Shown here: positions 9,897 to 61,600 of the stretch, piece by piece | How the letters are laid out: each line of letters starts with the position of its first letter | Position numbering within the stretch: the first letter of the stretch is position 1 | Assembly (NCBI GenBank): GCA_039621445.1 | Contig: CP154954.1 | Location: 6,769,425-6,833,424 of the forward strand | DNA: 64,000 nucleotides | From: Euglena gracilis | Lineage: Eukaryota | Direction of reading: 5' to 3' | Position numbers and translations under genes: made by a program | The notes under the pieces: model-generated | Told to the model about the DNA's origin: nothing | Seen by the model: the letters and a program-made list of their open reading frames with translations, nothing else | Databases searched by the model: none

Positions 9897-9907
9897 ACCC
9901 TCCCACT

Positions 9908-10613: not shown

Positions 10614-10661
10614 ATGGCAGACTGTGGCTTGGGGGACGACCCCCCAGGGCCGCTAGCCCCA
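10614..10661 (+). CDS. Gene B probable first coding exon
   Basis: MADCGLGDDPPGPLAP joins in phase 0 to EVEAWLG at 11341; aligns with gene [22 protein letters not shown]. Confidence 0.7.
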
Positions 10662-19600: not shown

Positions 19601-22600
19601 TGCTAGTGGTAGCGCAGTGTCAACGTCTTTGTCGTTGTTGTGATTGTTCGTTGCTTTACTGCAAGGATGCATTTTTGGGCCAAAGCCAAAGGATTTCCTT
19701 GTATTTTTTTCTAACGCTATTTTTGTACGAAACATGTGGGAAACATCTCTATACACAACCCAGGTTTTTTTTTCCAGGGAGGTTGCACCACCCATCCGCA
19801 GGGTTTGATATAAGGAGGGCGTACATGGTTTAGGTGGGGGGGTGTCCCCCCCCACCCCCCCACCTGGGGGGGTCCGGACCACTCCCCCCCACCTGCCAGG
19901 GGGATCCGGACCGACCTTGGGGGGGGTATCCGGGACCCCCCCCAAAAGGGTCAATTTTTTCCTCCGGCGCTTTGCGCCGAAAATTTTTTGCATTTTTGGC
20001 ACATTCTTGCCCAAAAAAAATGCCCAAAATGGCACTTTTGGTCGTTTTGGGGGGGGGGTCAAAAATTTTCGGTCACCCAGACCGCGCCACTGTTTAGGTG
20101 GGGGGGGTGTCCCCCCCCCCCCCCCCCCCCCGTCCTGGCCCGCAAGGGGGGGGGTCCGGACCCCCCACCTGTCCTTATATCGAACCCTGCCCATCCGACG
20201 CTTCCAACCCTTATATAATTTGCTCCTTGCGAGTCAGTTGCGGAGAGCTGCCTCCACAGTCGCCGAACCGGCCGTGCAAAGTCCCAACCATTCCTTGTCG
20301 GTCGTCGGGGCAGAGAGGAAGGTTCCGACTAGGATGGGATTCGCGGTGATGTCCCTAATGTGATCGAGCTTTTGGGGATGGACACCCATCGTTCATCCGG
20401 GATCCGTTAAAAGAAACATTTGTGCCGCAGTTTCAAGATTAAATGCCCAACGATGTCAACAATGAAGACAAATCAGAAGGTTTTGATTGCACCCTTTTTC
20501 TTTGTGCTGAAAGGCATCACAATTTGTGGGGGTTTCAGGATTTCATACAAACCAAGAACACCAGTGTGCAGACCAGGGTGCTGTTTCATCGTTCTCGATC
20601 TAAAGGAACAACTTCGGAATAAGTATGAGTTTACTTAAACTAATTTTACTTAATAATTATTAAAACTAATTTTTTTTCTAGTTTTAATTTAATCTTTATT
20701 ATTTTTTTCCACGTTGCAATTCCAATCAATTGCAATTATTTTTTCACAAAAAAAATGAATAATTTTCCACAATTTCATTTTGTAATATAGTTTACATGTT
20801 TCCGTAGTTTGGTGTTGTATGGAAACAGCTTCATTTTTTGGGGGGAAAAAACGGTCACCTGCTTCCTGTATATTTTTTTTGCAACGACAACACAGTGGCG
20901 CTCACATCCTGGGACCGGCGACGGGCTCTCTGTCGCGCCGCCGCCCTGGGGCCCTGCGGCCCGGCCCAAACTTTCCCTCCAATCGAATCGTTTCGCCCCC
21001 AGACCCACATCCTTTTTCAGACAACGGGGCACGAGAGTTGGGCGGCCCTCATCCCTGGTCCCTGGGCTGGGGGTGGGCGGGGTGGGTTTGGCCCCCTCCC
21101 CGCGGAGCAGTGCTCTGGGATGCAGGGCGCAGGAAGAAAGGGGAAGAAACAGTTTTTTTGGTAACATTTTCAAAGGTATTTTGAGTTGTTCCTTTTTCAT
21201 TTTTCCACGACTTTGAATGGCTTTTTTTCTGCGACCTGAAAAATGGACCCTCATGTATTCTAACCCTTTGAACGTGCTCAATCGTTCATTACCACTCCTC
21301 AGCAGGGGCTTTCCAAATGTTAGGTGTTAGTAACGCAAACCAGTTTAAATTTTTTAAACAGCTATTGCCGGATTGTTATCCGGTTTCAGGCCTAGCTCCA
21401 GCCCATGGGACCGCTATGGGGATGGGAGGGGGGGGTCAGCCAGCGGCTTTTTCCCAGACACCCAGCCACTGAGCCTGGGGGGTGGGTGGCAGGGGTCTTT
21501 AAGTGACGTCCCAGTGGACCTTTTTTGTTTTCTTACGGAGTTCTTGCCCACCCTCCGACCATCCAGCACCATCAGGGGCTGAATTCCCAGGGTTGTTGGG
21601 TTGCGGTGAATGCCGGGGGACACAACGCGATGCATGTCCGTGGACGGATCAGGGGGAAGTCTGCCTCCGCCCCTTCCCGGCCGACGCTCTTGACGGTTGT
21701 TGTACCGCATGGATTGTACGGATGTGGTCCGTTTTCAAGCGGTGGTTCGGTTTTGAATGGCTGGATGGGCTGGTTTGACTGGCACTGTGGCTGTATTATG
21801 TGTACCCCATGGTTATGATGATTACCATAACCAGGTGCATGAGAAGCTGTCAGAATCCTTGTTCCGCCAGCAAAAGAACTGATTGTGAGGCTTTTTTCGA
21901 CGCATTTTTCTGTTTGTGTGCAGATTGGGTTTCAAAAAAGAGGAAGAAGGAATCGAGTTTTAGAGTGACTGACTGGTTTTGGCCCAGACCCTCTCCCGGG
22001 GGGGGGGGGGTTCAGCAAAATGAGCCAGTGCCGAACGCGCCAGAAATTCCATTGGATTCCAGAGTGGCCAACCCCGGGTGGGAGGGGTAGTGACTGACTG
22101 GTTTTCCCCCCCAAAAAAAGAAGTGAGTGACTTGCTTTTGGAAGAGTGGAGCTTCTGGCGCTTTGCGCCGAAAATTTTGGGCAATTTTGACAAATTTTTG
22201 TCCAAAAAGGGTCAAAAATGGCATTTTGGCCAAATTTTTGGCCAATTTTGGGGCAAACTTTTTCGTCCCGCCGCTTCGCGCCGGGACCAAAAATTTGGTC
22301 AAACCTCCGAAAAGGTGTCCTCTGACCGGGGGGGGGGGTGGTCATTGGACATAGGGGGGTCGTTGGACATAGGGAGGTCGTTGGACATAGGGGGGGGGGT
22401 AATTTGAGAAATGATTATTTTGGCAGAAAGTCCCAACGCTTTTGATGTAAAAGCCCGAGATGCTCAGCTAAGCTCAGCAAAGCTCAGAACCTATCACCAG
22501 GACAGATGATCGAACCACTCCAGCCTTCCAGTCCCCAGGGTTCCCCTCATACATTTTTGGGTGGGTAGGGACTCGGGTACCCACCAACTTTCTTTTGACC

Positions 22601-25600
22601 CCATGTCCAACGACCCCCCCCCCCCGGTCAGAGGACAGAGGTTACCGGTCATTGGACATAGGGGGGGGGGTAAGGGAACCTCCCTAGGCTGTGGAGAAAG
22701 TAGTGATAAATCACAGTTTTCAAACGAGGTTTTCCGTAAAGCCAGCTTTCCCTTCCTTAAAGGCGTTCCAGGGACGGGCTTGAACCCGGGGACTTGTTCA
22801 GTGATAGCCTTGCTTGGGGGGGGGGCGTGGTTTGCCTCGTGCCGTGCAATATGCAATGCATTCTTTTTTTGGGTGTTAACATGAAAATGATGCATTTTCA
22901 CCCGGCATAGTTCGTATCACCCAATCTTTTGCGTGGTATGTGTGTCTCCACAAGTGCCATGTGTATCACAACAATATTTATCACATGTGTTATCGCCCAA
23001 ATTATTTTCGTGTAATTTAGCATCTGTGCCACCAAAGCAAAATTATTGTATTTGGTTCGTTCTCTTTTGCATTCGCGGCCGCGTCCCCAGCCCAGCCCCA
23101 CTCACCCTCCGCCGGCGGTCCGAGTCGATGCTGGAGATGTCCCCCCGCCAGGGCTCGCTCCGCGCCCAGAGCGACCAGCAGCGGATGCACCAGGCCCAGG
23201 CCGCTGCCCGGCGGTGGGCTCTTGCCTGAGGCTGTTGGCCCAGGGCCAGGCTTCTTTTTAAGTCAGAAGACCCCGGGGGGGGGGGGGGGGGGGGGGGGGG
23301 GTCCGGGGCCGGACAGCCAGGAGGGGGTCCCGGGCCGGAGGCCTGGGAATGGGTCTGTCGCGGAGCGCGGAAAATTTTTCGGAAATGCCCTCAGACGGCT
23401 CGATGTTTTGCGGTCCCCCCCGGGGGGTCCTGCGCCGGGCTGGGTGGTTGGGGGATCCCCCCTCCCCCCCGGGGTCTTAAAAGGATGCCTGCCCAGGGGG
23501 ACCAGGGGAGATGGGTTCCAGCCAGGGGTTTTCTTAAGCTGGAGGGGACACTGCACCCAGCTAGCACCCTTTTTCAAGCCAGTCCCAGCTGAGCTGCACT
23601 CCTCCCCCTTCCAGGGGGTCTGCTGAAATAAAGGTGAGGCCAGCTGGCACGAAATTCATTTCCCTGGCGAACTCCGCATTTTTTCCCACCCCCCCCTCCC
23701 CCGGGAAACGGTCCTGCCTTGGAAACTGTCCTCTAATCCCGCACCCGCTTATCTCCCCTCATCTGTCCTCATCTGTCCTCATCTGTCCTCAACTGTCCTC
23801 ATAGAAATGTCTCCTAGCCTTGTACCTGCTGACCTGTCAACTAGTAAATTTTTGCAAATGTTCACACGTTTTAGTGTAAAAGGCAAACATTTTCCAAGTT
23901 GAAAAATTTGCCAACTTTGTTTTCAAGTGATTACAAATTTGTGGGAAAACCCCGCATTTTGGATTTTTGTGTAAAAAGTTGTCAATTTTTTCTGCACTGT
24001 GCGGGACCCGCCCGGGAAACTGTCTCCTGTCTTCGTACCCGCTGACCTGTCTTTATGGGGACCTGTCTCCTACCTCTGTGCCTGCTGACTTGTCTAGAGA
24101 CAGTTTCCCAGGAGGGGTAGGTACCCGCGCCCCCCTGGGCAATTGACGCCCCCGGGCAATTGACGCCCCCGGGCAATTGCCGCCCCCGGGCAATTTTCAC
24201 CCCTAGCTGTGCTGGCCAATTTGTCACCCCGGGAAATTGTCACCCCCCTCCGTGCTGGCCAATCTGCCACCCCCCGTTTGCAGTATTGCACTGTGAACTT
24301 TCTTTTCGCCGACATGACTCGATCGATCTTCTATTTCGCTACAACGTGCTGAGAACATACCATACCAAACGCTCTGCACTTAATCACGACCATGGCTGCA
24401 TTTTTCTTGCATTCACTTGTGTTTAAGATGGTGTTCTTGGTCATTTGGTCCAAATGTGGCTTACATGGGTGGGCAATTGACGCCCCCAGGCAATTGTCAC
24501 CCCCCTCTGTGTCGGCCAAATTGTCACCCCGGGAAATTGTCACCCCTCCGTGCTGCCCAATTTGGCACGCGACAATTGCCCAGGGGGGGCGAGTATGATG
24601 AGAAACAATTTGGAAGAGGCTTGTGCCCCTCTCCATGCCCAATGGAAAAAAAATGCCCAATGAACAGAACCCAAATTTGACATATTTACCAATTGCCATT
24701 TACACAGTTACCATACACCTGTCATACAATATTAGCGAACCCCCATGTCCAATGATCGTCCCCGTCCACACCATCTGGGTTGTCACCTTCAGTGCCTCAC
24801 CCCACCTTACCCCACCACACGACACCCACCGGGGGGTCATGCATGGGCGGGCTTTCAAAACACAGTGGGTGAGTGTTTTTTGGGGTTTGGGGCCCGGCGA
24901 AGTGCCCGCCCCCTCCGGATGACCTGTGGTCAGAATTGCAATGCGGAGAGCCTTCCCCACAGGCCTCTCCCGCGGCAGCCGTCTGCCTGGGAGGGCATCT
25001 TCTGGGCGGTCAAGGAGGGGCTGCGGGACCGGGTGCGCCAGTTGGTGGCCGAGGACCCCGCCGTGCTGACCCAGCCCGTCCAGGCACTGCTGGCTGGTGG
25101 GGAGGGGTCCGGTGCCTGTTTGGGTCGCTTTTCTTTGGAACCTTGTGGCTGGCCGAGTGTTTTATGCATTGTGTGGCATATTTTTTTGAAGAATATTGGC
25201 GGGAGAAAGGCAGGTGCAGATATCTGTGTCTCCCGTCTGGTGGTGTTGACTGACACTAGACTGTCGGTTTGGCCGGCGCTGTATCTGTGGATGCCAGGAA
25301 TATCGCCGTTTTTAAGACTGCGGATTTCATAATGTTTCTGTATTGACTTCCATGTCAAAATAGTGCAAATGGGAACTCCTCTTGCGGAATTTAGGGCAAC
25401 TGGGCTGGGACGTTCTTGCCAGAACCGCATGCAGGCTGACGCAGTGGGGGCCAGCCCGATCCACGTCGCGTTCCTGTACTGGCAGACAGAGATTGGCAAA
25501 GCCCTCGTGGAGGAGTTTCCGAAGCTGGCACCCAGGAAGACCCGCCACAGTGCAACGAGAAGAAACTAAACACGCCCCTTGCCATTTCAAGCATTGGCTT

Positions 25601-28600
25601 CCCATATCCAACCAAGGTGGCTCCATTATTTAAAGAGAATTGTTTGTTTTTGGGTGAAGCCACAGGATTATGAGACAACTGCATGGGGGAGATGACGTTT
25701 TTTTTTTTGAGTTGATCCCCTGCTTTTAAATGGAAAGTGTGATGCCATCTTCACTGCATCATCAATGTCAATGCTTTGTATATCTTGAAAAAAAAAATAC
25801 TCCTGACAAACCGCTCGTCAAATGCAGGTTTGTGTTGCTTTACAAGGGATGCATACCTTTCCTCCAATTAAAAAGAAACCTGCCTCATCACATACATTCA
25901 AAGCTATTTTCCACAGCTCAGTAACGTTATTATTAACGGGTGTTCAAAAAAGGGTTGTGCAGTACCTGCCACAAATGTGAGAACAATACGTGCCAGTAAA
26001 CCCAACCGTTCAATGAGACCCCCCCCCAAGGTTTCCCTGCTCCCGACGTCGGTGTATGGGGAGGGGGAGTACAGCGGGGAGAGTGTCCTGCACATCGCCA
26101 TCATCCACCAGGACGTGGAGCTGGTGCAGTGGCTGCTGGACCGACACCCGGAGCTGCTCAACGCGGAGACCACCGGCTCGTTCTTCGCCCCAAGCGGGGA
26201 CGTGTACTTTGGGGACCCAGGGAGTGTCTGGGGTGTTTGTTTTCTGACGAAAACAGAGCAGGGTCCAAAAAATTTATTTATTCCACGTGACTTTAAATTT
26301 TTCAGGAAAGTCCATGCGACGTCCCAGAAGTTGTCAATGGAGCACAATTACGAAACCCTATGGGTGGTGGGTGGGGGATCGACCCCCATCCACCTCCGGC
26401 GTGGGGGCTTCAACTCCCCCCCCAAACCTGGCCATCCAGTGCTTCCGGTGGCGCAGAATTTTTCCTCCGGTGTCAGAATCTTGTCTTGCGAATTACCATT
26501 GTTGGTGGGGTCGACCCTCTCGTAGCAAGCTTTCCCAGCTTCCCCGCCCATGAATTTTTTAGCCGGAGTTCGCCATGCCCTGCGAGCCGGCTTCCGCTGC
26601 TGTTCGCAGTGTCCAGCAATCAGGTCGACATCTTGCGGTGCATCCTTGCCACCCGCATCGCGGATGATCCACGCGATGACCTGAAGAACCAAAACAGAGA
26701 AACCAAAATGGACCATTTCCCCCAGGCACGATGTCACAGGTTCTGTGGGCTCTGGATTGGGGCGTTCTTTCAAAATAATAAGAATTGGAACAAAATTGTT
26801 TTGAATGTTTTTTTTTTTGGAACCTTGGGTACCTTTTCCTCCAGAATCATTTTCTCCGAAGCCCAAATGCTTCAGGTTTTCCTCCAGGAAGGAACCGGAA
26901 CCTCTTCGCGGTGCCGGAATCCCATTTTTCCATTTCTTGCCAAAGTGGTCCCCCCTTTGCATTGACAAGGGCCCGACATCCCCAAGAACTTTTCCAACCG
27001 AAGCACCTCCCTCCCTCCCCCCTCCAGAGAATCATGTTGTCCCCTGCCCGGCCGGGATGTCTGGCCTTTCATTGCTGCCCCCCCCCCCAACCATTCCAGT
27101 CTTATGTCCCTCTGATGCCGATCACTGTGGCGGACCGCTTTGGCAACTCAGCCCTCCACATGGCGGTCATCCAAAGCCAGGGGCTTCCTCCCCCGGGCAC
27201 CACGTCGGGGTGGTTGGCGGTGTCCTCTTTTTCCTGGTTCTTTTCATTCCGGGGGTGTGATGCCCTGAAAGTTTTTTGACTTTTTTTGACGGGTCTCCCC
27301 CCTCAGATACCCCGGAAAAAGCTTGCTAAAAATACCATTGGCAGTCTGGTTTTCCTCCAACTACAGCATTATTAATAATGTATTCTGTGGCTCCGGTTAT
27401 TGCAAGCGCTGGCAGAGTTATTGGAAGTTATTGGGCGCGTTATTCTGGTGTCTGTTGTGCAAGGGTGTCGGAGGTAGGCCCTGCGGCCGACCTGCCGGAC
27501 ATGTATGCCCAACTGTCTCTGGTGGCCGTGCCCCACGCTGTGGAACATCGTGTTGCACTCCTGTGCAGATGCTGCGTATTTTTGGGCCTGGAGGGATGTT
27601 TATCAAGGAGGAATCCCCTTACAAGGGGACTGTCCTCTATTTTTGGTGGCAAGCACCCAAAAAAAGACCCCCAAAGTGGGTCCCACAAGCCCTCCCCCCC
27701 TTGGTGGGCCAGGGGTGTGTTTTAGGTAGGTAACGTCCCAAATATAACCCCCAGGGTATTTTTTTTGCCTGATGTCCAGGGTGGGTATATTTGGGGGGGG
27801 TTCCAGCTTAGATCTTGAAGCCGGACTCCAGGGGGGTTGCATTGCAGGTGCGTCTTAAAATAAAACATCTCTTTGCGGGTAATATGTGTGGCCTTGTGGC
27901 GGTTGGCGGTGTGTTGTTCGTGCACTGCTGTGCTGTACGATCCTTCGTTTGTTGAGTTCTTTTTGTTTGTGTCCCGTGCGGAGGCAGTTGCCCCCCGACC
28001 TGGTGGTGGAGGAGATGCTCCGCGACGGCTTGTCGGCGGCGGAAGTCCGGCGGCTGCTCAACGCGGAGGGGCTGACCCCCCTCGCCCTCGCTGCCGCCAT
28101 GGGGCAGGACCGCATGTTCCGCCCGGCCGGCAGAGGTTTACTCCTGCCGCCTGTCTCCTCCCACCCTGAACGTCATTTTTTCCCTCCAGCGCTTCGTGCC
28201 AGAAAGCCTTTTCCGGCATTTCCGAACTTTGCCCCGTATTTAATTTTTATTTTATAATTTCATATTATTTTATTTATATAATTATAATATATTATATAAA
28301 TATACGTATTATTGTATGTACATATATATGTATATATATGTGTATACGTGTATATATATACACATATACAAATATATGTATATGTATATATTGTATATAC
28401 ATATATTATATATTATTATATTTTATAATTTTAATTTTTTTTGCATTCTTTTTGTCTGTTAGTTTATCAAAGTGGGTCATCTTGACCATTACAATGTTGA
28501 GGGGGGAAGGGCTTAGACGGCCAACCTCGCATTTAAGTTTTTTTTTGGTGTGCGCAAATGCCCGCATGTTGGGGGTTTTGACTGTTGCGCCAGTGTGACA

Positions 28601-34600: not shown

Positions 34601-37600
34601 CGCCTTTCTACCCGTTTCTTACGGGTCGAAAATATGTAAATATTTTCCTGGAGACACACACCCCGAAGCACTAATGACACATTTCCCCTAAATATGCAGC
34701 ATTCATGGACGACGTGGGCAGGCATGATCCAATAGACAATTAGAATTTCATCTCCTGTTGCCTCCTGGTGAGTGACACTGCATGACCAAAATTGCGAATT
34801 GTGAAGGCCGCTCTGATCTCACTTGGTTTCCGGTCCACGGGGCCATTCGTCATCATGATCAAGGAAATGCTGCAGTATGAGCTGACTTGTGCAGAGACTG
34901 AACTCAAAGGGAACAAGTGCTGTTTTTTCGGCTTACGAGGAGCTTGTGCCCCCCCCCCCCCCCCCGCGCGCCAAATGCACAACTGCCAGTATCCCCCCCC
35001 TTGTCCAACGACCACTAAATATTTCTACTGACGGAGGGGTGGTTGTTAGACAAGACCAGGGTCAAAATCACAAATGTCTGGGAAAAAAGATCTGCTGGTA
35101 AAATATTGCTACTGACCGGGGGCGGGGATCGTTGAACAAGGCCGGTCGTTGGACAAAGGGGGGGGGGTTGCTTCGTCCCACCGGCCAATCAGCCACCCTG
35201 GGAGTGAGGAAAAAAAATACCCAAAACAACCCCATGCCAATTCTGCTCCCAATCCTGAAGGGAAGTGTTGTTGGATGTTGGTTTTGGAGACGCAATCGGG
35301 GAAGCTTGAGCACTGTTCTCCTTCAGGCCGGTGAAGTGGTAAATCAAAGTAACGGAATCGAACCGTTTCGGTGAATTTCACCGCATCCACTGTAAGGCAG
35401 GAGCAAAGTTTCTCCCACCCCCCTTGCCCAATGACCAGGCTTGTCCAATAACCACCCCCTCCCTCCGGTTGCGATGTTGGTTCAATAATTGTGGGAAGAA
35501 TTGTATGATTGAATTTTGCATTTGCATTTGGTGGTTTCAGAGTTTTTTTTTCCTGTATTTTGTTTGGATGATTTTGTAAATTTGGCTGAAAATGCCCAAA
35601 AATGGCACCAGAAGAGCTTCCTGCGGCAAGGGCGCATGTACGTGCTGCGGGTGTGTTGACCCCGAGTGAGTGTGTTGTGGTCGCGGTGGGGGCAAATTTA
35701 GCGGTGTTTGAATTGAGTCCGAATTCCTTGCAAAGCAACCTCTGTAAAATCGAAGTCTCAGACAGAAAAACCAATCACTCCAAAAAAAATGTTTCCAAAT
35801 TACCCAGAATAAAAATTGATGCCAGTATGTGATTGCAACACATGGCAAAAAAAATACGTTGAAAGTTGGCAAAAAAAAGCCAAAAATGGTCACAAGTGAC
35901 CAAAACTGGCCAAAAATGGCCAAAAATATCCCAACATTGGTTAATTTTTTGCGGACCTGGGTTCCACCCCCCTTATCCTACGAACCCCCCCTCCCTGGTT
36001 CGGAAAAACATTGGCTGTTTTAGCGACCGCCCCCCCCCCCCCGGTCGGAGACGGGGGGGGTAGCTGGGATAACCCCCGGGGTGTGATGGGTGGTGGGTCC
36101 GCAATTGGTGCTCGCTGAGCTGTAATTTGTGGACACCGATGATTTTGTGGTGATGATTTTTTGATTTTTTGTGGTTCTGGATTTTTGCAATTTTGGTAAT
36201 TTTTTTGCCACCCCAAATGCAGCCTGTTCCTCCTTGGGCTAGAGGTCTGCGGCGTGGGCCAGCGGCGGACGTGCGACGGTTCCTCTCCGTCATCGTCGCC
36301 CTGCTGCTGGGCTTCACCGTGGCCCTCTACCGGCTGACAGTCAGCCCGGAGCAGTGTGGCTTGGAGGCCTTCGCCGACCGGCTGTGGCCAGGGTGCCTGG
36401 AGGGCATGGATTTGGGACCCTCGCGAGTCCCTGGACAAAAGCACAATGCCACAAAAGTCGTCCCTGCGTGTTGAACGTAGGAGTATGCTTGCTGGGTGTT
36501 GAAAAATGCTTTTTTAAGACGTCACGTGAGGGGAGGACTTTTGACGCTTGTGGATGCGCACACAAGTTGCGCACACAAGGCGCACACGACACAAAGGAAT
36601 TGATAAATTTTGATATTACACACCACATGTAAGCATCATACATCTGTGTAATTTGGAAGGAATGATCGGCTCAAGCATGTTTTCGGAAAACCCTAAAGAT
36701 GGTTTTATAAACATTTTCTCATTTGTAATGACAGACATGGGCTCTCTTGTTGCCTGGGGCCTGGAAGCGGAATGGCAAACCACGAGCCGATCCCCACTCG
36801 CCTGAGGGAATTCCAGGTAACCTTAAGCAGCTGCCAAAGGCAGCAGTTGTTAACGGTGGATTTTTTTTCAGCTTGGGTGGGCAAGTCCCTCGTGTCTCAC
36901 TTCAGCTCTCTCCCACAGTCGGCTATAATTTGAATCCTAAACCGAGACACATCCTAAAAAAAAGCCGAATTTTTCAGTCCAGTGATTCCGTGGATATTTC
37001 AAAAGTGTTGCCTGTGAAATCTCCTGATAATTTTTGGAACCCATTGACAAATTGAAATTAAGACGAGAAAAAATTACCGATTTTGAAAGTGGTAAAAAAT
37101 TCTGGATGATGGTTAAATATTTTTCGCAGTTGTCAGCGACGTCCCTCGGCAGCAGCTTCTCTGGATGATGCTTGCTCTGTTGAATTCCAATTGCTCCTTT
37201 TATCAACAGATTTCCCCCCCAACTGCAGCACACAGCAACCGATGTATTTCTGATGACGTACTCTACACTCCACAGTTTTATATTCTGGACAATTCAGCCT
37301 TCTTTGCAGAGCTCTTCAACTTTAGTTCTGCAAGTTCTGCAAGATGTGCTGTTCGCTGTATTGCTGGGTCAAAAGGGCCATCACCCCAACTTCACGGGGG
37401 AGAGCCAAGGTCCGGGTCAGGAATAAGAGGGGAGCAGCACTTATTTACAGGAACCCGTGGAGAAGTTCATCTTTTAGGCTTTTCATCAACTTGTTTTGAA
37501 CATGTTTTTCGGAAAACCGTAAACGTCCCCCATTGTGCGACCTTTTTATCAGGCCCCCAATCGTTCACAGGAACCCGTGAACTGCCAACAGGGCAATATT

Positions 37601-40600
37601 ATTCCAGAATTATTCCAGAACACCCTGGGACTTGGTAACACCCTGGGACACGAAAATGAAAGAAATCGACCCAAATGGGGCAGCTTTCTGAGTGGGCAGA
37701 CAGTGCAGGCTGGGTCGCTGCTCGCAAGCATTGTTCTCCTGTATTTCTCCGGGCAGTCAATCGCCGAATTTTTTTTCGAAAAATGATGGAAACCTTTTTG
37801 GCCTTTCAAGCGCGGTGTGTCGGTCCCTCCGGCGCCCTGCCAGGGGCAGCTGGTGCTGCTGGGGCTCGTGGGGGACTTCCCATTCCGGGAATATCACGAG
37901 CACTTCAGCGGAGGCCGCATGATGCTCATCGGGCTGCTCTTTACATTGCCCAGGTCCACCGACAGCCGGATTTCCACAGCAACAGTCCGCGGAAAGTTGG
38001 CTGCGTAGTGTGGCACGGAGGTGAGTTTCTTGATATGCTCACCCTACGGGGGAGGTTGGATTTCAAGGTCTTGCTGACAGGTCACGGGGGGGATGGCTGT
38101 GCCGTTTGCGGAGTTGCACTCCACAGAGTGAATTCTGTTTCCACCCCCACCCCAAACAGGGTCCCCAAACAGGGTCTTACTGGGGGTGTCGCTTAAGCCT
38201 TATGGTATCCCATCCCCCGGGGGTTGGTCCAGCCAGCCAGCACCCTATTTCCCAGCCTCAGACCCCCTCCCCCATCGACGTTTTATTTTTTCCCCGGCCG
38301 CTCAAAGGGCTGCCGGATGGTGATGGTTTTTTTTTGGCTTCCAAAGAGGTGCAAAATGGGCCAAAAAAGCAAAAATGGTCAGAAAAGAGCTGCAGGGCAA
38401 ATTTGGGTGTTTTCTTTCATAATTGACAGTTTTTTTGGGGGGTAGCATTTCTGCCGTTTCGGTTGTTTTTTTGGTATTTGGTTTGACCCCCAGTCACGCT
38501 GACGTTCCAGCTGGAGAACCTGTGGGTCTATCAGCCTCTCGGCCCCTGTGCTGTGGCCCGAAGAGAGCCATACCTTTTTCCTCCGTCACGGTGGCGTTGG
38601 CTGTTCTTAGGGGGCGGTATCAAGCCAGGTGGGGGTTGACACGGGTCCCCGGGTGAAGGAGGGGGGACTGCGCTATCTGCGTGAGGGTGGCGCGCACAGA
38701 GCATCTAGGTATCTCCTCCACCACTGTCAACCCGTAGGGCCCGACAGAGGGCCTAGTGATGAATTTTTCAACCAGCTTGGGTCATGCTTTGCATGCTTTT
38801 TGAACTGAGAGAGCTGAGTAATCCACCACCCGAATTTAAGACCCCCCTAAGCGCACTGGGTGGAAAATTTTCCTGGTGTTTCATTTCGTATCCAGATTTT
38901 AGGCACATATTGATAAAATCGAGATATTTTGAATTTTTGAGACCAAAAAACCTATGAATCTTCACACCGATTTGCACTTTGATGCAATAAAGGATTTTAA
39001 TTACTCTTGTGAAACCAAAAAAGCATCATGGTTTTTTAGGTCAGTTTTAATCATGCAAAAACAAAATCACACCCGCCGAAGTTAGACCCCTGGATGTTTC
39101 TAGCAAATTTGGGCTTCTTTTAGGGGAGGGTATAGTGGCATGGAAAGGGGGTCACTTTTCTCAGCACTGCTGTATATGTGTACACATCCCCCTTTGGGCC
39201 TGCTGCCATACATTATTCTGGTTGTCATCCTGCTCCTCAACCTGCTCATCGCCATGATGGGCAACACGTACGCTGCGGTGCAAGAGCAGGCCGAGAAGCG
39301 GTGGTACCTCGAGCGGGCCAACCTCATGCCCAGGCGGCCTTTCCTGCCTCAAATCATACACGCACACGTGGACACACAACCGTGGAAAAAGGATGCTGTG
39401 TTAACATCTGAGGTTGGGGTGCAATAAAATTCATATTTTTTTGTTAGCCAGAAGAAGGCGAATTGTTCTCCCCAAGGTTGACCAATGGGTGCTGCTGGAG
39501 CACAGGGTTTAACAGGAATCTGGAAGCCATGGTGATGGCTTGTGGTGTACATTTATGCAGTTATGGGACGGGAAGGTCGGTGCCCCCCCCCCCAAGAGGG
39601 AGGGGCGTCCGAGGGTGGGTTACCGTAGGAGGAGGTTCCAGCTCGAACGTTCGAGCTCGAACCTCCTCGAACGTTTTTGACCCTCCCCCTTCGAGGGGGG
39701 GGGCTTAAAATCCTCCTTGAACGACATTCAAGGAGGATATCGATCCTCCTCGAACGACCTCGAACGACCTTCGAGGAGGATCTCGATCCTCGTCGAACGA
39801 CCTTAAACGAAATCTGGATCCTCCTCCTATGTATATTCATTCAGGTATCAGTTGCAAGTCTTTTTTTGGAGTTTGTTACCATGGTTCATTGTTCTTGATT
39901 CTGCTTGTTTGTTTGCTTTTTTCTTACACAGGAATGCACTCATTCATAAATATTTTATTCAAAAAATATTCCCATGCCGAGGGAATTTCTGGGGTTATTA
40001 GAAGGAATAGGGGTAGGGTTAAGATTTCATCCCCAATGGTTGCAACCATCCTGCTCATCGTTGCTATATTTCCCTCTACAGGGTACACGGCGAACCCAGA
40101 GAGTCGCCCAACTAGGGTTAAAAGCATGGGGGGACCCGAGCGAGGCGCCGAAGGTGCTGAGCGACGGTCCCCCCATGTGTATTAACCCTAGTTTGGCGAC
40201 TCTTCGGGGTAGCTGGTACCCAGTAGGGGGAAATTTTCCACGCGTTTTAAAAGAAACATATTTTTTCTTATGCAGGAATGCCTTCATTCATATATATTTT
40301 TATTCAAAAATATTCCCATACCGAGAGAATTTCTGAGGTTATTAGAAGGAGAAGGGTTAGGGTTAAGATTTCATCGCGAATGGTTGCAACCATCCCGCTC
40401 ATCGTTGCTATATTTCCCTCTACAGGGCACACAGCGAACCCAAAGAGTCGCCCAACTAGGGTTAATGGGGGGGTAAAAGTAGGAGGAGGTTCGAGCTCGA
40501 ACGTTCGAGTTCGAACCTCCTCGAACGTTTTTGAACCCCCCCATTCGAGGGGGGGCTTAAAATCCTCCTCGAACGACCTCGAACGACCTTCGAGGAGGAG

Positions 40601-41209
40601 CTCGAACCACTTCGAACAACCTTCGAGGAGGATCGAGATCCTCCTACTACTGTCCATCCCACTACCATAACCCTCCCGGGCGTCCGGGACCATCCTGCTG
40701 CCCCCCTCACTGGATGCCCTGGGGCGGAACCGTCCTCTGCCCCGGGCGGCGTACGAGGCGGAGCACACGGTGGAGGCGATGCAGGAGCTGCGGAAGGCGT
40801 ACGCCACGCCGTTCGGCCAGCCCGACGCCGCTGTGACGCCGGACACCGAGTTCTGCCTGACCACCACCCTGCCGCAGGCCGTTGCTTTCCCCCCTCCGGC
40901 GAGTGGAAAGAAAGCCTCCCCGCTCACACTCAGGGAAAAACATACACGACATGACACGCACAACAGAACGCAATGCACACAAATGTTTTATTTGATAGAA
41001 TGGGCCCCGGAATGACTACTGACCATGGGTTTCTTGACGAATGCGAACACTGGCAAACACCTGCATGTTCACTGGGGGGTCAATGAGAGGAGACGACGGG
41101 GTTTGGGTCGCCTGCCCCCGGGATGAGAGGTGGCCTGTCCCCGCGCTCCGAGGAATGGAAGACACCGCGGCGACCCTCTTTGTTCTCGTCTGACCGCTTC
41201 AGCTGTTGA
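10614..41209 (+). CDS. TRPV-like ankyrin-repeat six-TM cation channel, paralog B, apparently complete multi-exon gene
   Basis: Mapped exons: 10614-10661, 11341-11450, ~13161-13316, ~17091-17190, (further low-complexity exons likely 18800-21700, unmapped), ~23100-23205, 24988-25077, 25438-25529, 26045-26214, 26589-26691, 27120-27174, 27489-27506, 27997-28120, 30363-30409, 31022-31135, 31228-31284, 32077-32217, 32521-32562, 32937-33044, 33782-33860, 34452-34533, 34821-34878, 36268-36385, 37845-37947, 39208-39327, 40745-40871, 41144-41209 (TGA). Joins from 24988 on stay in frame and give ankyrin repeats, WDYGP, pre-S1 LDKKW, S1-S6, [13 protein letters not shown] and a TRP box. Confidence 0.9.
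10816..10929 (-). pseudogene. Ty3/gypsy LTR-retrotransposon RNase H fragment
   Basis: LEVDNSDYAVDGVLSQ...LHPVAFLSRKL resembles the D(A)SD..G.VLSQ...PVAF.SRKL gypsy RNase H motif; isolated relic inside gene B intron 1. Confidence 0.75.
11341..11450 (+). CDS. Gene B N-terminal exon 2
   Basis: EVEAWLGSCLAGLVSHLALCLAETGAE, similar to gene [29 protein letters not shown]. Confidence 0.7.
11961..12020. repeat. 10-bp minisatellite (AAATCCCGAC)n
   Basis: About six tandem copies visible. Confidence 0.85.
12248..12438. repeat. Interstitial telomere-like repeats in inverted arrangement
   Basis: GGGTTAGGGTTA patches 12248-12317 facing (CCTAAC)n 12399-12438; degenerate tract also ~33666-33707. Confidence 0.7.
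13161..13316 (+). CDS. Gene B N-terminal helical (coiled-coil-like) exon
   Basis: DLPAQLRRLAAVVRAAEARLRRL...RQHRRKGP vs gene [24 protein letters not shown]...RRHRRKGP (44188-44373). Confidence 0.75.
13597..13906. mobile_element. TA-TSD MITE (family B, GGAAACTGTCAGGGTCCC subrepeats)
   Basis: TIR CCTA(C)nGGGAAACTGTCA / TGACAGTTTCCT(G)nTAGG, TA both sides; other copies ~2932-3097, ~7481-7727, 17927-18254, ~23689-24121. Confidence 0.85.
16122..16967. mobile_element. Family B MITE with internal 124-bp tandem amplification
   Basis: TA-CCTA(C)n ... (G)nTAGG-TA; units start at 16258, 16382, 16506, 16630, 16754, 16878. Confidence 0.9.
17927..18254. mobile_element. Family B MITE
   Basis: Same TIRs and subrepeats as 13597-13906. 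Confidence 0.8.
18281..18555. mobile_element. hAT-like MITE
   Basis: CAGGGTTTTTTTTT ... AAAAATATACCCTG; perfect 8-bp TSD AAGGGCTG. Confidence 0.9.
19799..20189. mobile_element. hAT-like MITE (family C)
   Basis: TIR CAGGGTTTGATATAAGGA / TCCTTATATCGAACCCTG; perfect 8-bp TSD CCCATCCG. Confidence 0.92.
22152..22670. mobile_element. Rearranged family A MITE (inverted left half 22152-22399, right half 22551-22670)
   Basis: Reverse-complement and forward matches to 4138-4549. Confidence 0.7.
23247..23491. mobile_element. hAT-like MITE (family D)
   Basis: TIR CAGGCTTCTTTTTAAG / CTTAAAAGGATGCCTG; TSD CCCAGGGC/CCCAGGGG; related right ends at ~6826 and ~10489. Confidence 0.87.
24124..24593. mobile_element. 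TA-flanked MITE with GGGCAATTG subrepeats
   Basis: TA-CCCGCGCCCCCCTGGGCAATTG ... CAATTGCCCAGGGGGGGCGAG-TA. Confidence 0.7.
26045..26214 (+). CDS. Gene B exon: ankyrin repeat and TRPV finger 3
   Basis: [23 protein letters not shown]...TTGSFF...VYFG, the TRPV ankyrin-domain G.FF...YFG motif. Confidence 0.93.
27489..27506 (+). CDS. Gene B 18-nt micro-exon (DLPDMY)
   Basis: Flanked by CTG-N5 upstream and N3-CAA downstream; paralogous ELPDIY at 63393-63410; completes LH.AV....MY ankyrin motif. Confidence 0.85.
27997..28120 (+). CDS. Gene B exon: last ankyrin repeat
   Basis: LLNAEGLTPLALAAAMGQDRMF (TRPV N..GLTPL.LAA..G...F). Confidence 0.92.
28280..28430. repeat. AT-rich (TA/TG) low-complexity microsatellite
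   Basis: Direct reading. Confidence 0.8.
28512..30130. mobile_element. ~1.6-kb TIR element with 4-bp TSD
   Basis: TIR CTTAGACGGCCAACCTCGCATTTAAG / CTTAAGCGCGAGTTTGGCCGCCTAAG; AGGG on both sides; no intact ORF; superfamily not assigned. Confidence 0.7.
29188..29594. mobile_element. TA-TSD MITE (family A), nested in a larger TIR element
   Basis: TA on both sides; same TIRs and interior as 4138-4549. Confidence 0.9.
30363..30409 (+). CDS. Gene B exon: linker with W.YGP motif
   Basis: (Q)HILAKSSVIAWDYGP, read by hand and absent from the ORF track; in frame with both neighbours. Confidence 0.88.
32077..32217 (+). CDS. Gene B exon: pre-S1 helix and S1
   Basis: RLDLIVSAEVRQVLDKKWDAFGQRMFYRKLAVALGTVLAWT (TRPV L..KW..FG...F). 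Confidence 0.9.
34452..34533 (+). CDS. Gene B exon: S4
   Basis: LSELPGLVDVTAAFGALTGWLHVFFFL joining in frame to [16 protein letters not shown] at 34821. Confidence 0.85.
36268..36385 (+). CDS. Gene B exon: S5 and turret
   Basis: DVRRFLSVIVALLLGFTVALYRL...AFADRL. Confidence 0.9.
39208..39327 (+). CDS. Gene B exon: S6 and TRP box
   Basis: [39 protein letters not shown]. Confidence 0.93.
39623..40647. mobile_element. TCGA-rich TIR element (family E) with duplicated core
   Basis: Starts TA-CCGTAGGAGGAGG; core copies ~39928-40120 and ~40272-40462 match 9567-9748. Confidence 0.7.
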
Positions 41210-41289
41210 ATAGGTTGCAAACAGTAGACGATGCCCAACAGTGAATGTGTCTGCAGTGAGTTTGCCAAAATGACTCTTTAGAACTTTAT

Positions 41290-42739: not shown

Positions 42740-42814
42740 TCATCTCTATTATCCCTTCTTTTGCAGGTGCGCAGCCCCGACCTCCACGGTGCAGCCACTT
42801 TGCGGGTCTGTTGC
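42740..42814 (+). promoter_or_regulatory. Candidate spliced-leader trans-splice acceptor (CAG ending 42766) and 5' UTR of gene C
   Basis: TCTCTATTATCCCTTCTTTTGCAG polypyrimidine tract plus AG, ~48 nt before ATG 42815. Confidence 0.55.
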
Positions 42815-45672
42815 ATGGCCAACCAGGTCAGAGAGGGCAAAGTTTGGCTCTCCCCAGGGGGGGGGGGGGTTGATATTTTTCCGCAATTTTTCCGCAATTT
42901 CCGCAATTTTCCGTTTCCGCAATTTTCCGCAATTTTCCCGCTATTTCTGCAGTTTTTTCCGATGACACCATTCTTTGAATTTGTGCGGCTCACCGTCTCG
43001 CAATTCTGTCGCTGGCACCTGCATTTCATGTGAATGCCATGCTGACCTGTGAACATTTCTACAAACGTTCCCAAATCCAGTTGCCACTGGTCACAGGATT
43101 GGGTGCGTCCTACCTGTGCATAGAACTTCAAGCGTGTTGATTTGTGCTCGCCTGCATCGACGTGGGTGTTGCGGTGTTCTGAACCTCACAATTGAAAAAT
43201 TTCTAAGTCCCCTCAAGCAGAAATGTGTATATTCCCGATATCAATTTTCCGCAATTTTTCCCGCAATTTCCGCAATTTTTCCGCAATTTTTCCGCAATTT
43301 TTCCGAAGGCTTCCGATATCAATCCCCCCTTGCTCTCCCCTAGTATGTTATTTTGGCTACATTTGCTTATTTTGAGCCATATGAGGCATGTTATGTAGGT
43401 TTTGTGGGTGGGTGGGTGGGTGGGTGTATTACCTGTGTGCCTGCTTGTCTTGGTGTTCATGTGGCGTGTCTGCTTGCGCGCGAGCGTGCGTGTGTGCGTG
43501 TGTGTGTGTGTGTGTGCGTGTGTGTGCGTGTGTGTGCGCGCGCACGCGTGTGTGTGCATACTTGAGTGTGTTTTCTTGTGTACCGGAAAACACAATTTCC
43601 ACCGACATTCGCCGACAATTTCACCCCAACGGCCTGGGTGGTCCAGTTTGGCAGGCAATGTGCTTCCCACAGCCCAATAGGGAGCCAATGTGCCAAGGAG
43701 GGGTGCGGGGGGTCCATCGTCCGGGGTCCACTGATGTCCTCCGCGCCCTGTGGCCGACCCCCCCGAGGGGGACCCCCGCCCGGCCCTCGCCCGGCGGGCC
43801 GAGGCGGTGCTGCACGGCGCCCGCCTCGCGGCCCTCACCGCGCAGCTCGCCCGCTGCCTCGCCCGCACCGCGGCCGGCGAGGCGCCCGGCGCCCCGGAGC
43901 CGTCCCTGCCCGGGCCCCCACCGAGCACGGTTTGCTGTGTCGGCGTCGGCGCCAGCCACAACCTGTCAACGCCGCGGAGTTGCCGCGTTCCCCGCGACAG
44001 CTTTTTGAGGACTCGGAGGTTTCTTTGGACATAATTTTCATACTTGGCAAAAAGAAATGCCCCAAATTCTCTCCAAGGCACTCTTCAACCTTCAAGGAAT
44101 TTGAACTTTTTGGCACAAAATGTGTACTATTATGCACCCCCCCCCCCCGGAATGACGGCCAAGAGTGTGGAGTGTCGGCCCGCGCCGCCCCCCGTGGCGG
44201 ACCTCGGGGAGCAGCTGCGGGGGCTGGCGGCGCTGCTGCGGACGGCGGAAGTGCGTCTTAAGCAGTTGCCGGCGCTCTGTGCGCGGCTGGCGGCGGCGGA
44301 GATGGAGGCGGAGGACCTCCGGGGCCAGCTGGAAGTCGCCCTGCGGCGGCACCGGCGCAAGGGGCCGCTGCCCCTCGGGCCCCGGATGGGCGATTTGTGG
44401 CAGTCCGGAGTTGTTCGCCCTGGCAAACTTTCTTGTTGTGATGTGTTCTTTCAATAGTACCTTTTGTATTTTCTGTTTTCATTTTTTCAAGTATTTTTTT
44501 TGTTTCAAACAAAGTGTGTGCACGTCATACATCTCTCTAAGGTTTTGCGACCCCCCCCCCCCGAGGGGGCGGCTGCAGCCAGCCCCGATTTGGGCCCAGC
44601 CCAGCCGCAGCAGCACCCCCCCCCCTGGGCTGGCTAGCCCAGCTAGCCAGCCCCTTTTTTGTGGGTCCAGCCCAAAATTTTTCGGCGCAATTTTTTTGAA
44701 TTTTTTTGAAAAACTGTGTTCAAAAGTGGCCAAAAATGGGGTTTGGGGGGCGTTTGGGGCATTTTTGGGGGTTTCAGATGCATCATTTTTTCAAAACTGT
44801 GTTTTGCAGGTCATTTTTGGGCATTTTTCCGATTTCAGTCCAGTTTCCATTTTTTCCGATTCCAGTCCCCGGTTCGGGTCCAGCCGGGGTCCACCCCCCC
44901 CCCCCGGCGGGCGGGCTAGCCAGCCCAAATTTCTAGCCAGCCCAAATTTCTAGCCCTAGCCCAGCAACCCCCCCGGGGTCCTTAAAGAGATGTATGGTGT
45001 GCGTGTGCGCGCGTGTTTCTGTGTATGTGTGTGCGCGAGTGTGTGTGTGGGAAAGTGCCAAGGGTGTCAAGCCTGTGCCGTGCTTGTTGCCACGCTCCTT
45101 CCCCTTTGTTTTAATGCCGGTTTCTCCCTCGCAGCCCTCTTGGCCCTGGCTCTCACCCTTGCCCTCGCCACCACCCGTGAACTGGCTGACCGCCCTGACC
45201 GCGCAACTGCTTGCACCTGTTTTTCCGCCCCTATCCCCCAAGCCCAGATTGCCAAATACATTTCTCCGCCAGGAATTTCGAATATTTTTTTTTTTTTTGC
45301 TGATTTTTGATGTCAAGATTGTCGGTACCGGGTTTATGACCACCATACAGCGTCGAAGAAATAGTCGGAATGGTTTGTGTTGAGGAGGCCGTTGCCCAGC
45401 CCGGACCTCTTCCCCGGCCGCCCCCTGCATCCCGTCCCCGCAGCCGCCAACGGCTGCCGGTCCCTCCTGGCGGGGCGGCCACACTGCAACGGCGTCAGCC
45501 CCTGCGTTGTGGTCTCAGCAGCACCGCCAGTGCCGTCGCCACCGGACCACGCACTGCGCCGCCCCCTCCATACAGGGTTCCGTGAGAACGGCCTGCGCAT
45601 CGCATTTGTTCGCCAGCAGTTGGGGCAGAGGGTGGGGTTGTCATTGCTTTTCTTGATTGAGGATTTTTGCTC

Positions 45673-58600: not shown

Positions 58601-61600
58601 GATAAGAGCTCAGCGACCAGGGTGTGACGTAGAGCTGAGCTCTTTGGGGGCGAAAAACGCTCATTTTCAGCTCAAAAACATGTTTTCCGGGTCCAGGAGG
58701 CTCAAAAACATGGTTTTGGCCGAAAAATTTTTTTCGATATTTTTTGACTTCTTTGACCCGGTTTTGACCCAAAGTCAATGGGTTGGCGAACCAAAACGGG
58801 GCGCTGGCGGGTCGAAAAACGCTCATTTTCAGCTCAAAAACGCTTTTTCCGGGTCCGGGAGGCCAAAAAACATGGTTTTGGGCGAAAAAAAAAGTTTCGA
58901 TTTTTTTCGACTTTTTGACCCGGTTTTGACCCAAAGTCAATGGGTTGGCGAACCAAAATGGGGCGCTGGCGGGTCGAAAAACGCTCATTTTCAGCTCAAA
59001 AACACTTTTTCCGGGTCCGGGAGGCCAAAAAACATGGTTTTGGGCGAAAAAATTTTTTTGAATTTTTTTGAATTTTTTTGACTTTTTTGACCCAAAAATG
59101 GCTAAGTCCATCGGCCAGGGGGGGGGGGGGCATTCAGGGGGGGGGCATGGGGGGGGGGGCGGGTCGGAAAAATTTTTTTCGCTCAAAAACACTTTTTTTG
59201 ATGTTCTGAAGTGAAAAAAAGTGTTTTTGAGCGAAAAAATTTTTTTCAAAATTTTGGGTCCCGACCTGCCACCCGACCCCCCCTCGCCCAGCCGCCCTGA
59301 CGGCGCGTGATGGGGTCCCCGAACACCCAAAACTGGCCAAAATCGCACAACCAGACCCCGGGAACCCCAAAAAACGGTCAAACCCCCCCCCCTAAACGTA
59401 ATGTTTGACCCCCAGTTTGGGTCCCAACTCCCCGTCTAGCCCGAGATACGGCCAATTTACGGTTTCGGGCCCTGAACAGGCCAAAACTGGCAAAACGGGC
59501 CCAAAACCCCTAAAACGGCCGTATCTCGGGCTAGGCAAGGAGTTGTCCTAAACCGCGCATACCGATCGATAGGGCGTTCCAAGGTCGTCAAATAAGGTCG
59601 CCATCACTTTTCCTCAACTCCGCAGCGTTTTCGAGATATTTTGAAATTTTCGATTTTTGGAGACCCACAAATGTGGGAATGGACAAAGTTGGTAACGTCT
59701 GAGCTTTTTCGCTGTCCGCGAAAAATCAACGTTGTTGTCTAGGCTTCCTTGTTTTATATTACACCTTGGTCATTGCAGTAAAAGCCTCCTGACCCTACAG
59801 CGCAGCATTAACCCTCAAATTTCAGCCGACTCAAATTGATTGTCATAAATTCGGGTGCCAGCTAGGAATTTTTTCAAGGTTGCACCCCTAGGGTGCAGGG
59901 TGGGTGGTCCTGCCGGACCCCCTTCTCCCTCAAGGGGGTAGCTTCAAGGTCTTTGTCCCGCCGGAGGCCTGGTTTTGGCCATTTTTGGCCCTTTTTTTTT
60001 CGCGGTGAAGTGCCGAAACTTTTTTGACCCCAAAATTATCACCCCCAAAAATGGGTCCCCACCAGTGGCCGGAAATTTTTTGACCCCAGAACCTGTATTT
60101 TTTGGACAAAATCGACGAGAAAATATGTCAAAATCTCCGTTTCCACCCCCCTTTTCCCCCGGTTGGGTTGGGGAAAACCTGGACCCCCCCCCCACCCCTG
60201 GGAGAGGGGAGTCCAGCCAGTGGGTGTGTCCAGTGACCGATAAAGTCCCAAGCTCCCCGGGGTCTTACCGGCAAAATCCGGGTTTGGGCTGGATGGTCCC
60301 CCAGCGCGCAGCCGCCTGCCAGCGAGGGCATCTACTGGGCCATCAAGGAGGGCCGCCGGGACGCCGTGCGGCGGCTGGCGCAGCAGGACCCCTCCGTGCT
60401 GACCCGCCCCGCCCAGGCGGCGAGGGCCATGCGGTGCGCTCCGTTTTAGCCTCCAGCACACGTTTCCTCTTCAGCAAGTGTGGCTGCTGCCCGTGGTATG
60501 GTGGGCATTGCCACCCCGCAATGGCTGCCTGGAAGTTCGGCCCCTGAATTTCGCTGTGCGTGTTGGGCATGCGGCCTGCCTGGGACGCGGTGGGGGCCAA
60601 CCCGATCCACATCGCCTTCCTGTACCGGCAGACGGAGATCGGCAAGATGCTCGTCGAGGAGTACCCCCAACTGGCACCCAGAGCTGCAGTCCAGTTCCCG
60701 CCACTCGCCATCCACCCGTCCGTCTTGACACCCTCTGCTCTGGAAGGCTGCGAAATGCAGCAGCCAATTGAAGTGATTTCCACCTGGTTCGCCCCCCACC
60801 CAGGAGAAATTGTCATGCTCAGCAAGCTGGGTCCTCCAGGAAATTGCCAGTCAGCATTGCTCTCTGCTCTTGTATGGCTGTTGAAGACAGAGATGTTCCC
60901 CCCCAAAGTTGGTGTCTTGGTGGAGGGGGGTTCAGGAAGTTGTTTCCCAGGTCCAAAAAAGCAACCTCGTTTGTTTTGCGATAAGAGAGTCTGTAACAAG
61001 AGGTCTTCAAGCATCTGTGCCCAGAATAGTTCCCCAAATAGAAGCATTACCCGCTTTTGCCCTTTGGCCACAGTAACCCCCCCCCCCGAGAATTGAAACC
61101 CCGGTGCATGGGTTGAATGTGCATGTGCGTGCGACACCTCCCTCCCGGATTGTCGCCCTGGAATTGACGTCGGTGTACGGGGAGGGGGAATACAGCGGGG
61201 AGAACATCCTGCACATTGCCATTATCCACCAGGACGTGGAGCTGGTGCGCTGGCTGCTGAATCGCGGCCATATCATTGCCGAAAGTCGCCCCCTTTCTCC
61301 CGTTCGATGATACCTGGTGCGTGTTTGCTTTAGAATTGACCCAGGAACCGATGGCATATAACTAGCAGACCCCACTCTGGTGAGAATGGAGTGAATGAAA
61401 TCGGACAGAAAACGAACCTGAATTCTGGGAGATTTTTTTTTGCTTTTGGAAGTGAAAATGGAGAATGACCTGGACCCTTCGGCAATAGCATGCGTGTGAC
61501 CCGGAGCTGCTTAATGCGGAGACCACCGGCTCGTTCTTTGCCCCAAGTGGGGACGTGTACTTTGGGGGGCCAGGGAGTGACTTCTGGGCACACTTTTCAC

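Follow-up and report, generated by a model that had tools for sequence, protein, structure and literature searches.

Does an intron of Euglena gracilis still carry, in its flanks, the footprint of the event that put it there? The question is raised by gene A, a member of a tandem array of ankyrin and ion-transport (TRP-like) channel paralogs. Gene A lies in a stretch of 64,000 nucleotides (nt) of the E. gracilis nuclear genome (assembly GCA_039621445.1, contig CP154954.1, positions 6,769,425 to 6,833,424 of the forward strand), which we call the window. Its coding sequence is interrupted after the second codon by an intron (intron 1) whose two flanks resemble each other over 8 nt. A preliminary description of this DNA had read the resemblance as the target-site duplication of a hAT transposon, kept at seven of eight positions, around an intron that is present in gene A and absent from the neighboring paralog, gene B. 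We argue below that the intron is real, that it belongs to the nonconventional class of euglenid introns, and that it was probably gained by an insertion that duplicated its target.

Nonconventional introns are reported to be excised as circular RNA, after the conventional introns have been removed. They are the majority of introns in Euglena, with a share of 71.8% in Euglena agilis (PMC12501133). The code by which they are recognized in Euglena places CAG behind a 3-nt spacer at the donor and CTG ahead of a 5-nt spacer at the acceptor; the downstream exon begins with a purine, and there is base pairing beside the two motifs (PMC12501133). In knock-in tests, splicing needed the CAG/CTG motif and a donor-side spacer of the right length, while some change in length was tolerated in the acceptor-side spacer; a CGG-CCG "derivative" motif has also been shown to be spliceable (PMC12501133). 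That such introns descend from elements resembling MITEs (miniature transposable elements with inverted repeats) was proposed in 2014 (PMC3935182) and has been repeated since (PMC12501133; PMC11282704).

The Splice Joint of Intron 1

Under this code, the CAG at 42824 and the CTG at 43748 would be recognized as a pair by the nonconventional splicing system. With cleavage 3 nt ahead of CAG and 5 nt past CTG, GCC would then be joined to GAC, yielding a protein that begins with MADPPEG. A transcript-derived protein begins in exactly this way. Exon 3 (44173-44397), used as the query of a protein search, had a single match, eukprot EG_transcript_45420 (P0001, 135 amino acids), at 97% identity; the EG_transcript naming is that of the E. 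gracilis transcriptome paper (PMC6366073). P0001 starts with MADPPEG, and 133 of its 135 residues have exact counterparts in the window, in four blocks that correspond to exons 2-5 (43753-43911, 44191-44355, 45149-45199, and 45407-45433). The exceptions are M1 and S30, the latter a T in the window. Because the frame of exon 2 supplies no ATG (there is a GTG at 43750 and a stop at 43732), M1 must derive from 42815. The third residue is encoded by GAC, not AAC, and therefore the joint has to lie at or before 42820|43756, the position that the 3/5 code (named after the lengths of its two spacers) predicts.

Removal of intron 1 at the predicted joint is borne out at the protein level only, and at this level we regard the intron and its junction as very probably real. 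The positions that the preliminary description had given for the octamers, for CAG and CTG, and for the intron (42821-43755) are confirmed by the sequence. Its splice ATG GCC|GAC is supported by the start of P0001, and the first exon does contain six coding nucleotides, ATG GCC being all the coding bases it has.

Two observations limit this reading. First, three raw-read RNA runs of the same species label placed 77, 77, and 86 reads, at a depth of about 1–5, and no read spanning the joint at 42820|43756 is listed among them at our threshold of three reads per joint; with so few reads, this result speaks neither way. Second, the transcript stems from another data set and differs from the window in one residue, so an intron-less allele or copy is a possible source. 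The reads also hold some weak evidence for removal of the intron: the single-copy intron bin 43538-43663 has an RNA depth of 0 in all three runs, and the exon 2 bins reach up to 1.9 in two of the three.

One could argue, then, that the source of the MADPPEG transcript is an intron-less allele or some other copy, and that the copy in the window is spliced differently or is a pseudogene. The difference at residue 30 and the lack of a joint read agree with this argument, as does an exon 2 variant with four differences in RNA run X21 (three of three reads). The four differences lie at 43772, 43816, 43830, and 43837; they are absent from the reads of RNA run X22 and of DNA run X1, and one of them gives T30S as in EG_transcript_45420. 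The variant therefore means that more than one allele or copy is expressed across data sets. We nevertheless consider it very unlikely that gene A owes its transcript to another copy. First, the joint that the transcript requires is the one that the published code predicts from the DNA of the window. Second, the mapped blocks of P0001 fit the gene A locus exactly, and so do 13 further junctions of EG_transcript_3144 (P0002, 854 amino acids), a second transcript that continues gene A through 63065. Third, contigs of DNA run X1 span both borders of the intron as they do in the window, and no DNA joint across 42820/43756 is found among the 15 joints listed of 54.

Intron 1 and the Splicing Code

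Intron 1 has the spacers, the borders, and the pairing that the code describes. Its CAG occupies positions +4 to +6, after AAC, and its CTG positions −8 to −6, before TGGCC. The borders are not GT/GC-AG, and the downstream exon opens with a purine, G43756. The duplex of the two intron ends has an energy of −31.8 kcal/mol, compared with −19.3 ± 5.2 kcal/mol for 2000 random 45-mers, 1.25% of which reach the observed value. When the whole intron is folded, 42804-42814 pairs with 43750-43760.

How typical this is can be judged from the other introns of gene A. Our verified set holds 15 introns: introns 1 and 2 from P0001, and 13 of the 18 junctions of P0002, which were solved without mismatch. The other five junctions of EG_transcript_3144 (with 1–8 mismatches) were left out of the intron statistics. 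None of the 15 has GT/GC-AG ends, 11 carry complementary triplets at +4 to +6 and −8 to −6, and 6 carry CAG/CTG in the exact 3/5 register. Introns i19 and i20 have CAG/CTG with 3/6 spacing by our reading, and intron 2, which carries CGG…CCG, has a perfect stem of 6 base pairs (bp) between 43911-43916 and 44177-44182. We conclude that intron 1 is a typical member of the gene A intron set.

An ordinary spliceosomal intron can also be drawn at this place, running from the GT at 42827 to the AG at 43766-43767. It would have a CAG|GTCAGA donor and a pyrimidine-rich tract leading to GAG|G, and it would join the exons in frame to give MANQGDPRP. P0001 reads MADPPEG instead, and with GT/GC-AG ends in 0 of 15 verified introns such a model is extremely unlikely. 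A GT-AG version of intron 2 (43930-44172) looked plausible as well and is contradicted by the transcript protein.

Compared with the euglenid nonconventional introns described so far (PMC12501133, PNAS 2025; PMC3935182; PMC4770533), intron 1 is alike in its ends, registers, spacers, purine, and pairing. It also shares with them the direct repeats that let the border slide (by 5 nt in intron 1), and nothing essential is different. What sets it apart is its place directly after codon 2, its length of 935 nt, to which a nested MITE and microsatellites contribute, and a junction repeat longer than usual.

The Repeat at the Junctions

The octamers on the two sides, TGGCCAAC and TGGCCGAC, are identical at seven of eight positions, the sole mismatch being A (42821) against G (43756). 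CAG (42824-42826) abuts the 3' side of TGGCCAAC, and CTG (43748-43750) abuts the 5' side of TGGCCGAC.

Taken by itself, such a pattern is not rare. TGGCCRAC is expected 7.9 ± 2.9 times on the two strands of the window and is found 15 times, a count that 2 of 100 shuffles attain. The arrangement octamer-CAG…CTG-octamer with at least 7/8 identity is found in 56 of the 66,871 CAG..CTG pairs of the window (0.084%; spacing 30–3000 nt), without any window-wide excess over shifted registers (63–88 of 66,871). The bare pattern therefore means little and matters only on a real intron. What exceeds chance is the exact coincidence of the pair with an intron supported by a transcript. On a CAG/CTG intron, the chance of flanks that agree at 7/8 is about 1e-3.

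A junction repeat of at least 7/8 occurs in two of the 15 verified introns, intron 1 and i4. In i4 (~45197-45403, 207 nt, transcript-verified), 45192-45200 and 45399-45407 are alike at eight of nine positions, and the 3/5 register holds neither CAG/CTG nor a complementary triplet. Among pseudo-introns the null rate is 0.7% each (0.2% when the 5' sites are exonic), and the probability of finding two or more in 15 is 0.005. Long junction repeats are enriched among the verified introns, in line with the literature: in E. agilis, "slidable" introns amount to 84.4% (PMC12501133), and repeats resembling target-site duplications, called "TSD-like", are frequent at nonconventional introns (PMC11282704).

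Comparison with Gene B

The counterpart of gene A exon 2 in gene B lies at 11335-11454 and is 50% identical over 42 amino acids. In our model of gene B, this exon is preceded by a start that reads MADCGLG without a break after codon 2, and the ATG GCA GAC of gene B is likely the uninterrupted counterpart of the gene A start. Aligned end to end with gene A, the N-terminus of the gene B model scores 93 against 22.3 ± 6.1 (z = 11.6), a score that none of 1000 shuffles reaches.

It counts against a gain in gene A that the start of gene B is a model and that the DNA around the two starts is alike only at background level. The local score for the DNA of the A and B 5' regions is 23, against a null of 20 ± 13, and the score of a global alignment of the A and B untranslated regions (UTRs) is one that random pieces reach in 3.4% of cases and shuffles in 15.7%. 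The first 16 residues taken alone do not align significantly either (21% of shuffles reach the score). A search for a gene B transcript with exon 13137-13295 gave no match among the longer proteins. A query with a gene B ankyrin exon returned the gene A transcript (91%), a further paralog (the third, 86%), a fragment, and a homologue of environmental origin, and no gene B transcript. The description of intron 1 as paralog-specific holds, then, insofar as the gene B model aligns with gene A; it is weakened by the lack of a B transcript and by a comparison that is not significant for the first 16 residues and for the DNA.

Intron turnover between A and B is real. Intron i18 of gene A (61266-61497) carries CAT…ATG with 3/5 spacers and strong inverted ends and is validated by P0002 (…LLNR|DPELL…). 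It is absent from gene B, whose sequence is continuous at 26139-26147. The flanks of i18 are alike at only 3/8 although the intron is absent from B, and therefore not every paralog-specific intron keeps a duplication. We count this against the origin proposed below for intron 1, and likewise that nothing above 6/8 is found in the other 13 of the 15 verified introns.

It could also be that the 7/8 repeat is a coincidence. The intron might then be old, or the start of gene B non-homologous, and two start-like contexts (ATGGCC and gTGGCC) would resemble each other by accident. Starts often read ATGGCC, and this makes a partial match more likely. TGGCC is partly set by the start codon and a preferred alanine codon. 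The window offers 56 chance configurations from which this one was picked afterwards, and neither exon 1 of gene B alone nor the DNA of the 5' regions stands out from the background. We still think a coincidence improbable. First, at about 1e-3 per intron and with some tens of introns in the window, only about 0.03–0.05 chance matches are expected. Second, verified introns are enriched in long repeats (2/15, P = 0.005). Third, the sole mismatch sits at a neutral intronic position. Finally, the gene B model does align with gene A when its whole N-terminal part is used.

Origin of Intron 1

We propose that intron 1 was gained in gene A after the gene duplication, through an insertion that made a duplication of its own, and we put the probability of this origin at about 0.55–0.6. 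Once A and B had diverged, an element reaching from CAG to CTG would have entered gene A at the target TGGCCGAC. Removal of the element from the RNA, together with one of the two duplicate copies, would return the original reading frame without a scar, because 3 + 5 = 8. The single mismatch would be neutral, falling as it does within the 3 nt of the 5' copy that serve as intronic spacer, and a second, high-copy MITE would have landed inside the intron later. In favor of an insertion, the repeat adjoins CAG and CTG without an extra base, just as a target-site duplication adjoins the ends of an element.

hAT transposons have termini with a CAG-type motif, and other superfamilies also make duplications of 8 bp. 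For hAT, the target-site duplication is 8 bp long (PMC8721813). Because elements in the window show perfect 8-bp duplications with CAG…CTG or CGG…CCG ends, a hAT-like insertion is a plausible origin of intron 1, though not a proven one. The copies of a MITE family at 19799-20189 and 5338-5756 share homology that stops exactly at CAG/CTG and have duplications that match at 8/8 and 7/8; their geometry is that of the nonconventional-intron code. Two shorter CAG…CTG elements, at 18281-18555 and 23247-23491, have inverted ends that match at 13–14 of 16 positions. The two copies of a CGG…CCG element at 9177-10341 and 39612-40678 sit in different perfect 8-bp duplications, TCCCGGGC and GGCGTCCG. A scan blind to the motifs examined 7,772 pairs of perfect 8-mer repeats, 17 of which have inverted ends that match at 12/16 or more. 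Its clean picks are two CAG…CTG elements and the two CGG…CCG copies, and the remainder are poly-C or palindromic repeats.

Other observations tell against a transposon. Outside the nested MITE, the body of intron 1 has no other copy in the window, where it finds only microsatellite and G-rich matches, and the one clean bin (43538-43663) has a DNA depth of 42.7 in run X1, against about 50, which is that of single-copy DNA. The intron body therefore belongs to no recognizable repeat family. Its ends match as inverted repeats at only 11 of 16 positions (the background chance of at least 11/16 is 1.2%), and pairing is needed for splicing anyway. None of the 82 open reading frames (ORFs) of at least 150 amino acids in the window matches a transposase family.

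Like hAT MITEs, intron 1 has an 8-bp duplication and CAG…CTG termini, and the duplication abuts the ends of the putative element at 7/8; short, imperfect inverted ends may be a further likeness, but splicing itself selects for such pairing. It differs from them in that its body is not a recognizable multi-copy element, further copies being absent from the window search and from the depth of the one bin, and in that no hAT transposase was found among the 82 window ORFs. Without a transposase there, the name hAT comes down to the 8-bp length and the CAG ends, and we use it as a label of geometry only. Of the preliminary claim of a hAT target-site duplication, the register and the match to elements of the window stand. 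The assignment to hAT is called into question by the single-copy body, by the lack of a transposase, and by an alternative that needs no mobile element.

In that alternative, the intron was also gained recently, and the 8-nt repeat arose by fill-in of a staggered double-strand break that was repaired with filler DNA, without transposase or mobile element. Milanowski et al. (2016) suggested such repair as the source of the 8-nt repeats at a strain-specific gapC intron of E. agilis (PMC4770533). It would suit the single-copy body of intron 1, unlike other sequence of the window, and also i4, with its 8/9 repeat and no CAG/CTG. Random filler, however, would need to start with CAG and end with CTG right against the repeat and to have paired ends besides, whereas the transposon copies of the window bring such ends with them and make 8-bp duplications. 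Hence, we regard break repair as rather unlikely and prefer the insertion of an element.

The MITE nested in intron 1 had been noticed in the preliminary description, and it is real. Its flanks 42847-42855 and 43332-43340 are identical over 9 nt, and its inverted ends consist of a G-run and TTGATAT (42863-42876 and 43316-43329 are 93% complementary). In one DNA run, its summed depth is 4e4 to 9e5, against about 50 for the single-copy flanks.

Features of the Window

The features discussed here are collected in Table 1. A pyrimidine tract with CAG (42764-42766) directly precedes 42767 and is likely a spliced-leader acceptor or a 3' splice acceptor; acceptors made of a C-rich tract and CAG have been described for outrons (PMC11170887). 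An exact 24-nt stretch of gene A exon 2 had 0 matches in metagenome contigs.

Two side observations concern the other paralogs. A third expressed paralog, EG_transcript_820 (1152 amino acids), is nearest to the 3' exons at 74-5890 and 34822-40871. The second observation is that loose ends of RNA reads before 42241/42242 match ~41220-41246 (two runs; three and four reads). A joint of 41246/41247 to 42241/42242 indicates, within the 3' part of gene B, an intron of ~994 nt whose ends are not GT-AG and which, by our reading, has CTG…CAG at 3/6 spacing.

Table 1. Genes, parts of gene A and gene B, and repeat elements, in positions of the window.
Feature	Position	Strand	Remarks
Tandem array of at least three ankyrin and ion-transport (TRP-like) channel paralogs	74-5890, 10614-40871, 42815-63065	+	
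First paralog, 3' end	74-5890	+	
Gene B	10614 to ~40871	+	
Gene B, putative exon 1 (MADCGLG...)	10614-10661	+	model; uninterrupted after codon 2
Gene B, putative CAG/CTG intron	10662-11340	+	model; 3/5 rule; exon 2 from 11341
Gene A	42815 to beyond 63065	+	
Gene A, exon 1, probable 5' UTR	42767-42814	+	read from sequence; 5' end putative
Gene A, exon 1, coding bases	42815-42820	+	ATG (42815-42817) and GCC (42818-42820), the sole coding bases
5' octamer copy, TGGCCAAC	42816-42823	+	last 3 nt are intronic spacer
Nonconventional intron 1	42821-43755	+	935 nt; starts AA, ends CC; transcript-derived protein and fit to code
Putative inserted element	42824-43750	.	CAG to CTG; ends alike at 11/16 as inverted repeats
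Nested high-copy MITE	42855-43331	.	8-bp flanking duplication GCTCTCCC; TTCCGCAATTT subterminal repeats
3' octamer copy, TGGCCGAC	43751-43758	+	first 5 nt are intronic spacer; GAC is codon 3
Gene A, exon 2	43756-43907	+	3' end slidable between 43907 and 43911; P0001 residues 2-54 correspond to 43753-43911
Nonconventional intron 2	43908-44186	+	CGG...CCG; spacers 3 and 4 nt; 4-nt slide
MITE family, two copies	19799-20189 and 5338-5756		~400 nt, 86% alike; ends CAGGGTTTGATAT...CTG
Short CAG...CTG elements	18281-18555 and 23247-23491		275 and 245 nt; duplications 8/8 and 7/8
~1.1-kb element, two copies	9177-10341 and 39612-40678		CGG...CCG inverted ends (CGGGnGGGTTAC...)

Discussion

The closest published parallel to intron 1 is intron 4 of gapC in E. 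agilis ACOI 323, which is absent from close relatives and is flanked by 8-nt direct repeats, longer than those of older introns (PMC4770533). That intron is strain-specific and its repeat was read as the product of double-strand-break repair, whereas intron 1 is compared between tandem paralogs. Unlike the repeat in the description of the gapC intron, the repeat of intron 1 matches at 7/8 and abuts CAG and CTG in the 3/5 register that was defined later. Gene A intron 1 is a second well-documented case of the same kind, in another species and between paralogs.

Another parallel can be drawn to Introner elements, reviewed in PMC11282704. As in the origin that we propose for intron 1, a DNA element enters an exon and leaves again at the level of RNA, with the duplication helping to set the borders. 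For Introners, the spliceosome carries out the removal, at sites of the GT-AG type; intron 1 has no such borders and would be removed by the euglenid CAG/CTG system. In the main text passages covered, we found no paper that ties nonconventional introns to hAT by name. Within the same scope, we also found none on Euglena families of elements that end in this way, and none that reads 3 + 5 = 8 as the length of a duplication.

A further, more tentative idea can be put forward. The code itself, with 3 nt before CAG and 5 nt after CTG, may be the exact inverse, at the RNA level, of insertion by transposons that have CAG…CTG or CGG…CCG ends and duplicate 8 bp. We hold this to be possible rather than probable. 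If it is true, the RNA would show no scar of any such insertion into an exon, and intron 1 would be a young example whose duplication is nearly intact. The MITE families of the window (19799-20189/5338-5756 and 9177-10341/39612-40678) would then be the kind of element that seeds such introns.

Intron 1 provides a concrete test case for the origin of nonconventional introns: it is paralog-specific, as far as the gene B model goes, and it has kept a 7/8 duplication in the register of an experimentally defined code. With transposon copies of the same geometry only a few kilobases away, a "MITE-like origin" becomes something that can be counted genome-wide and tested by the published knock-in assay. 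A single locus adds an example and no new principle. Its main value lies in a countable prediction for the dominant class of introns in Euglena.

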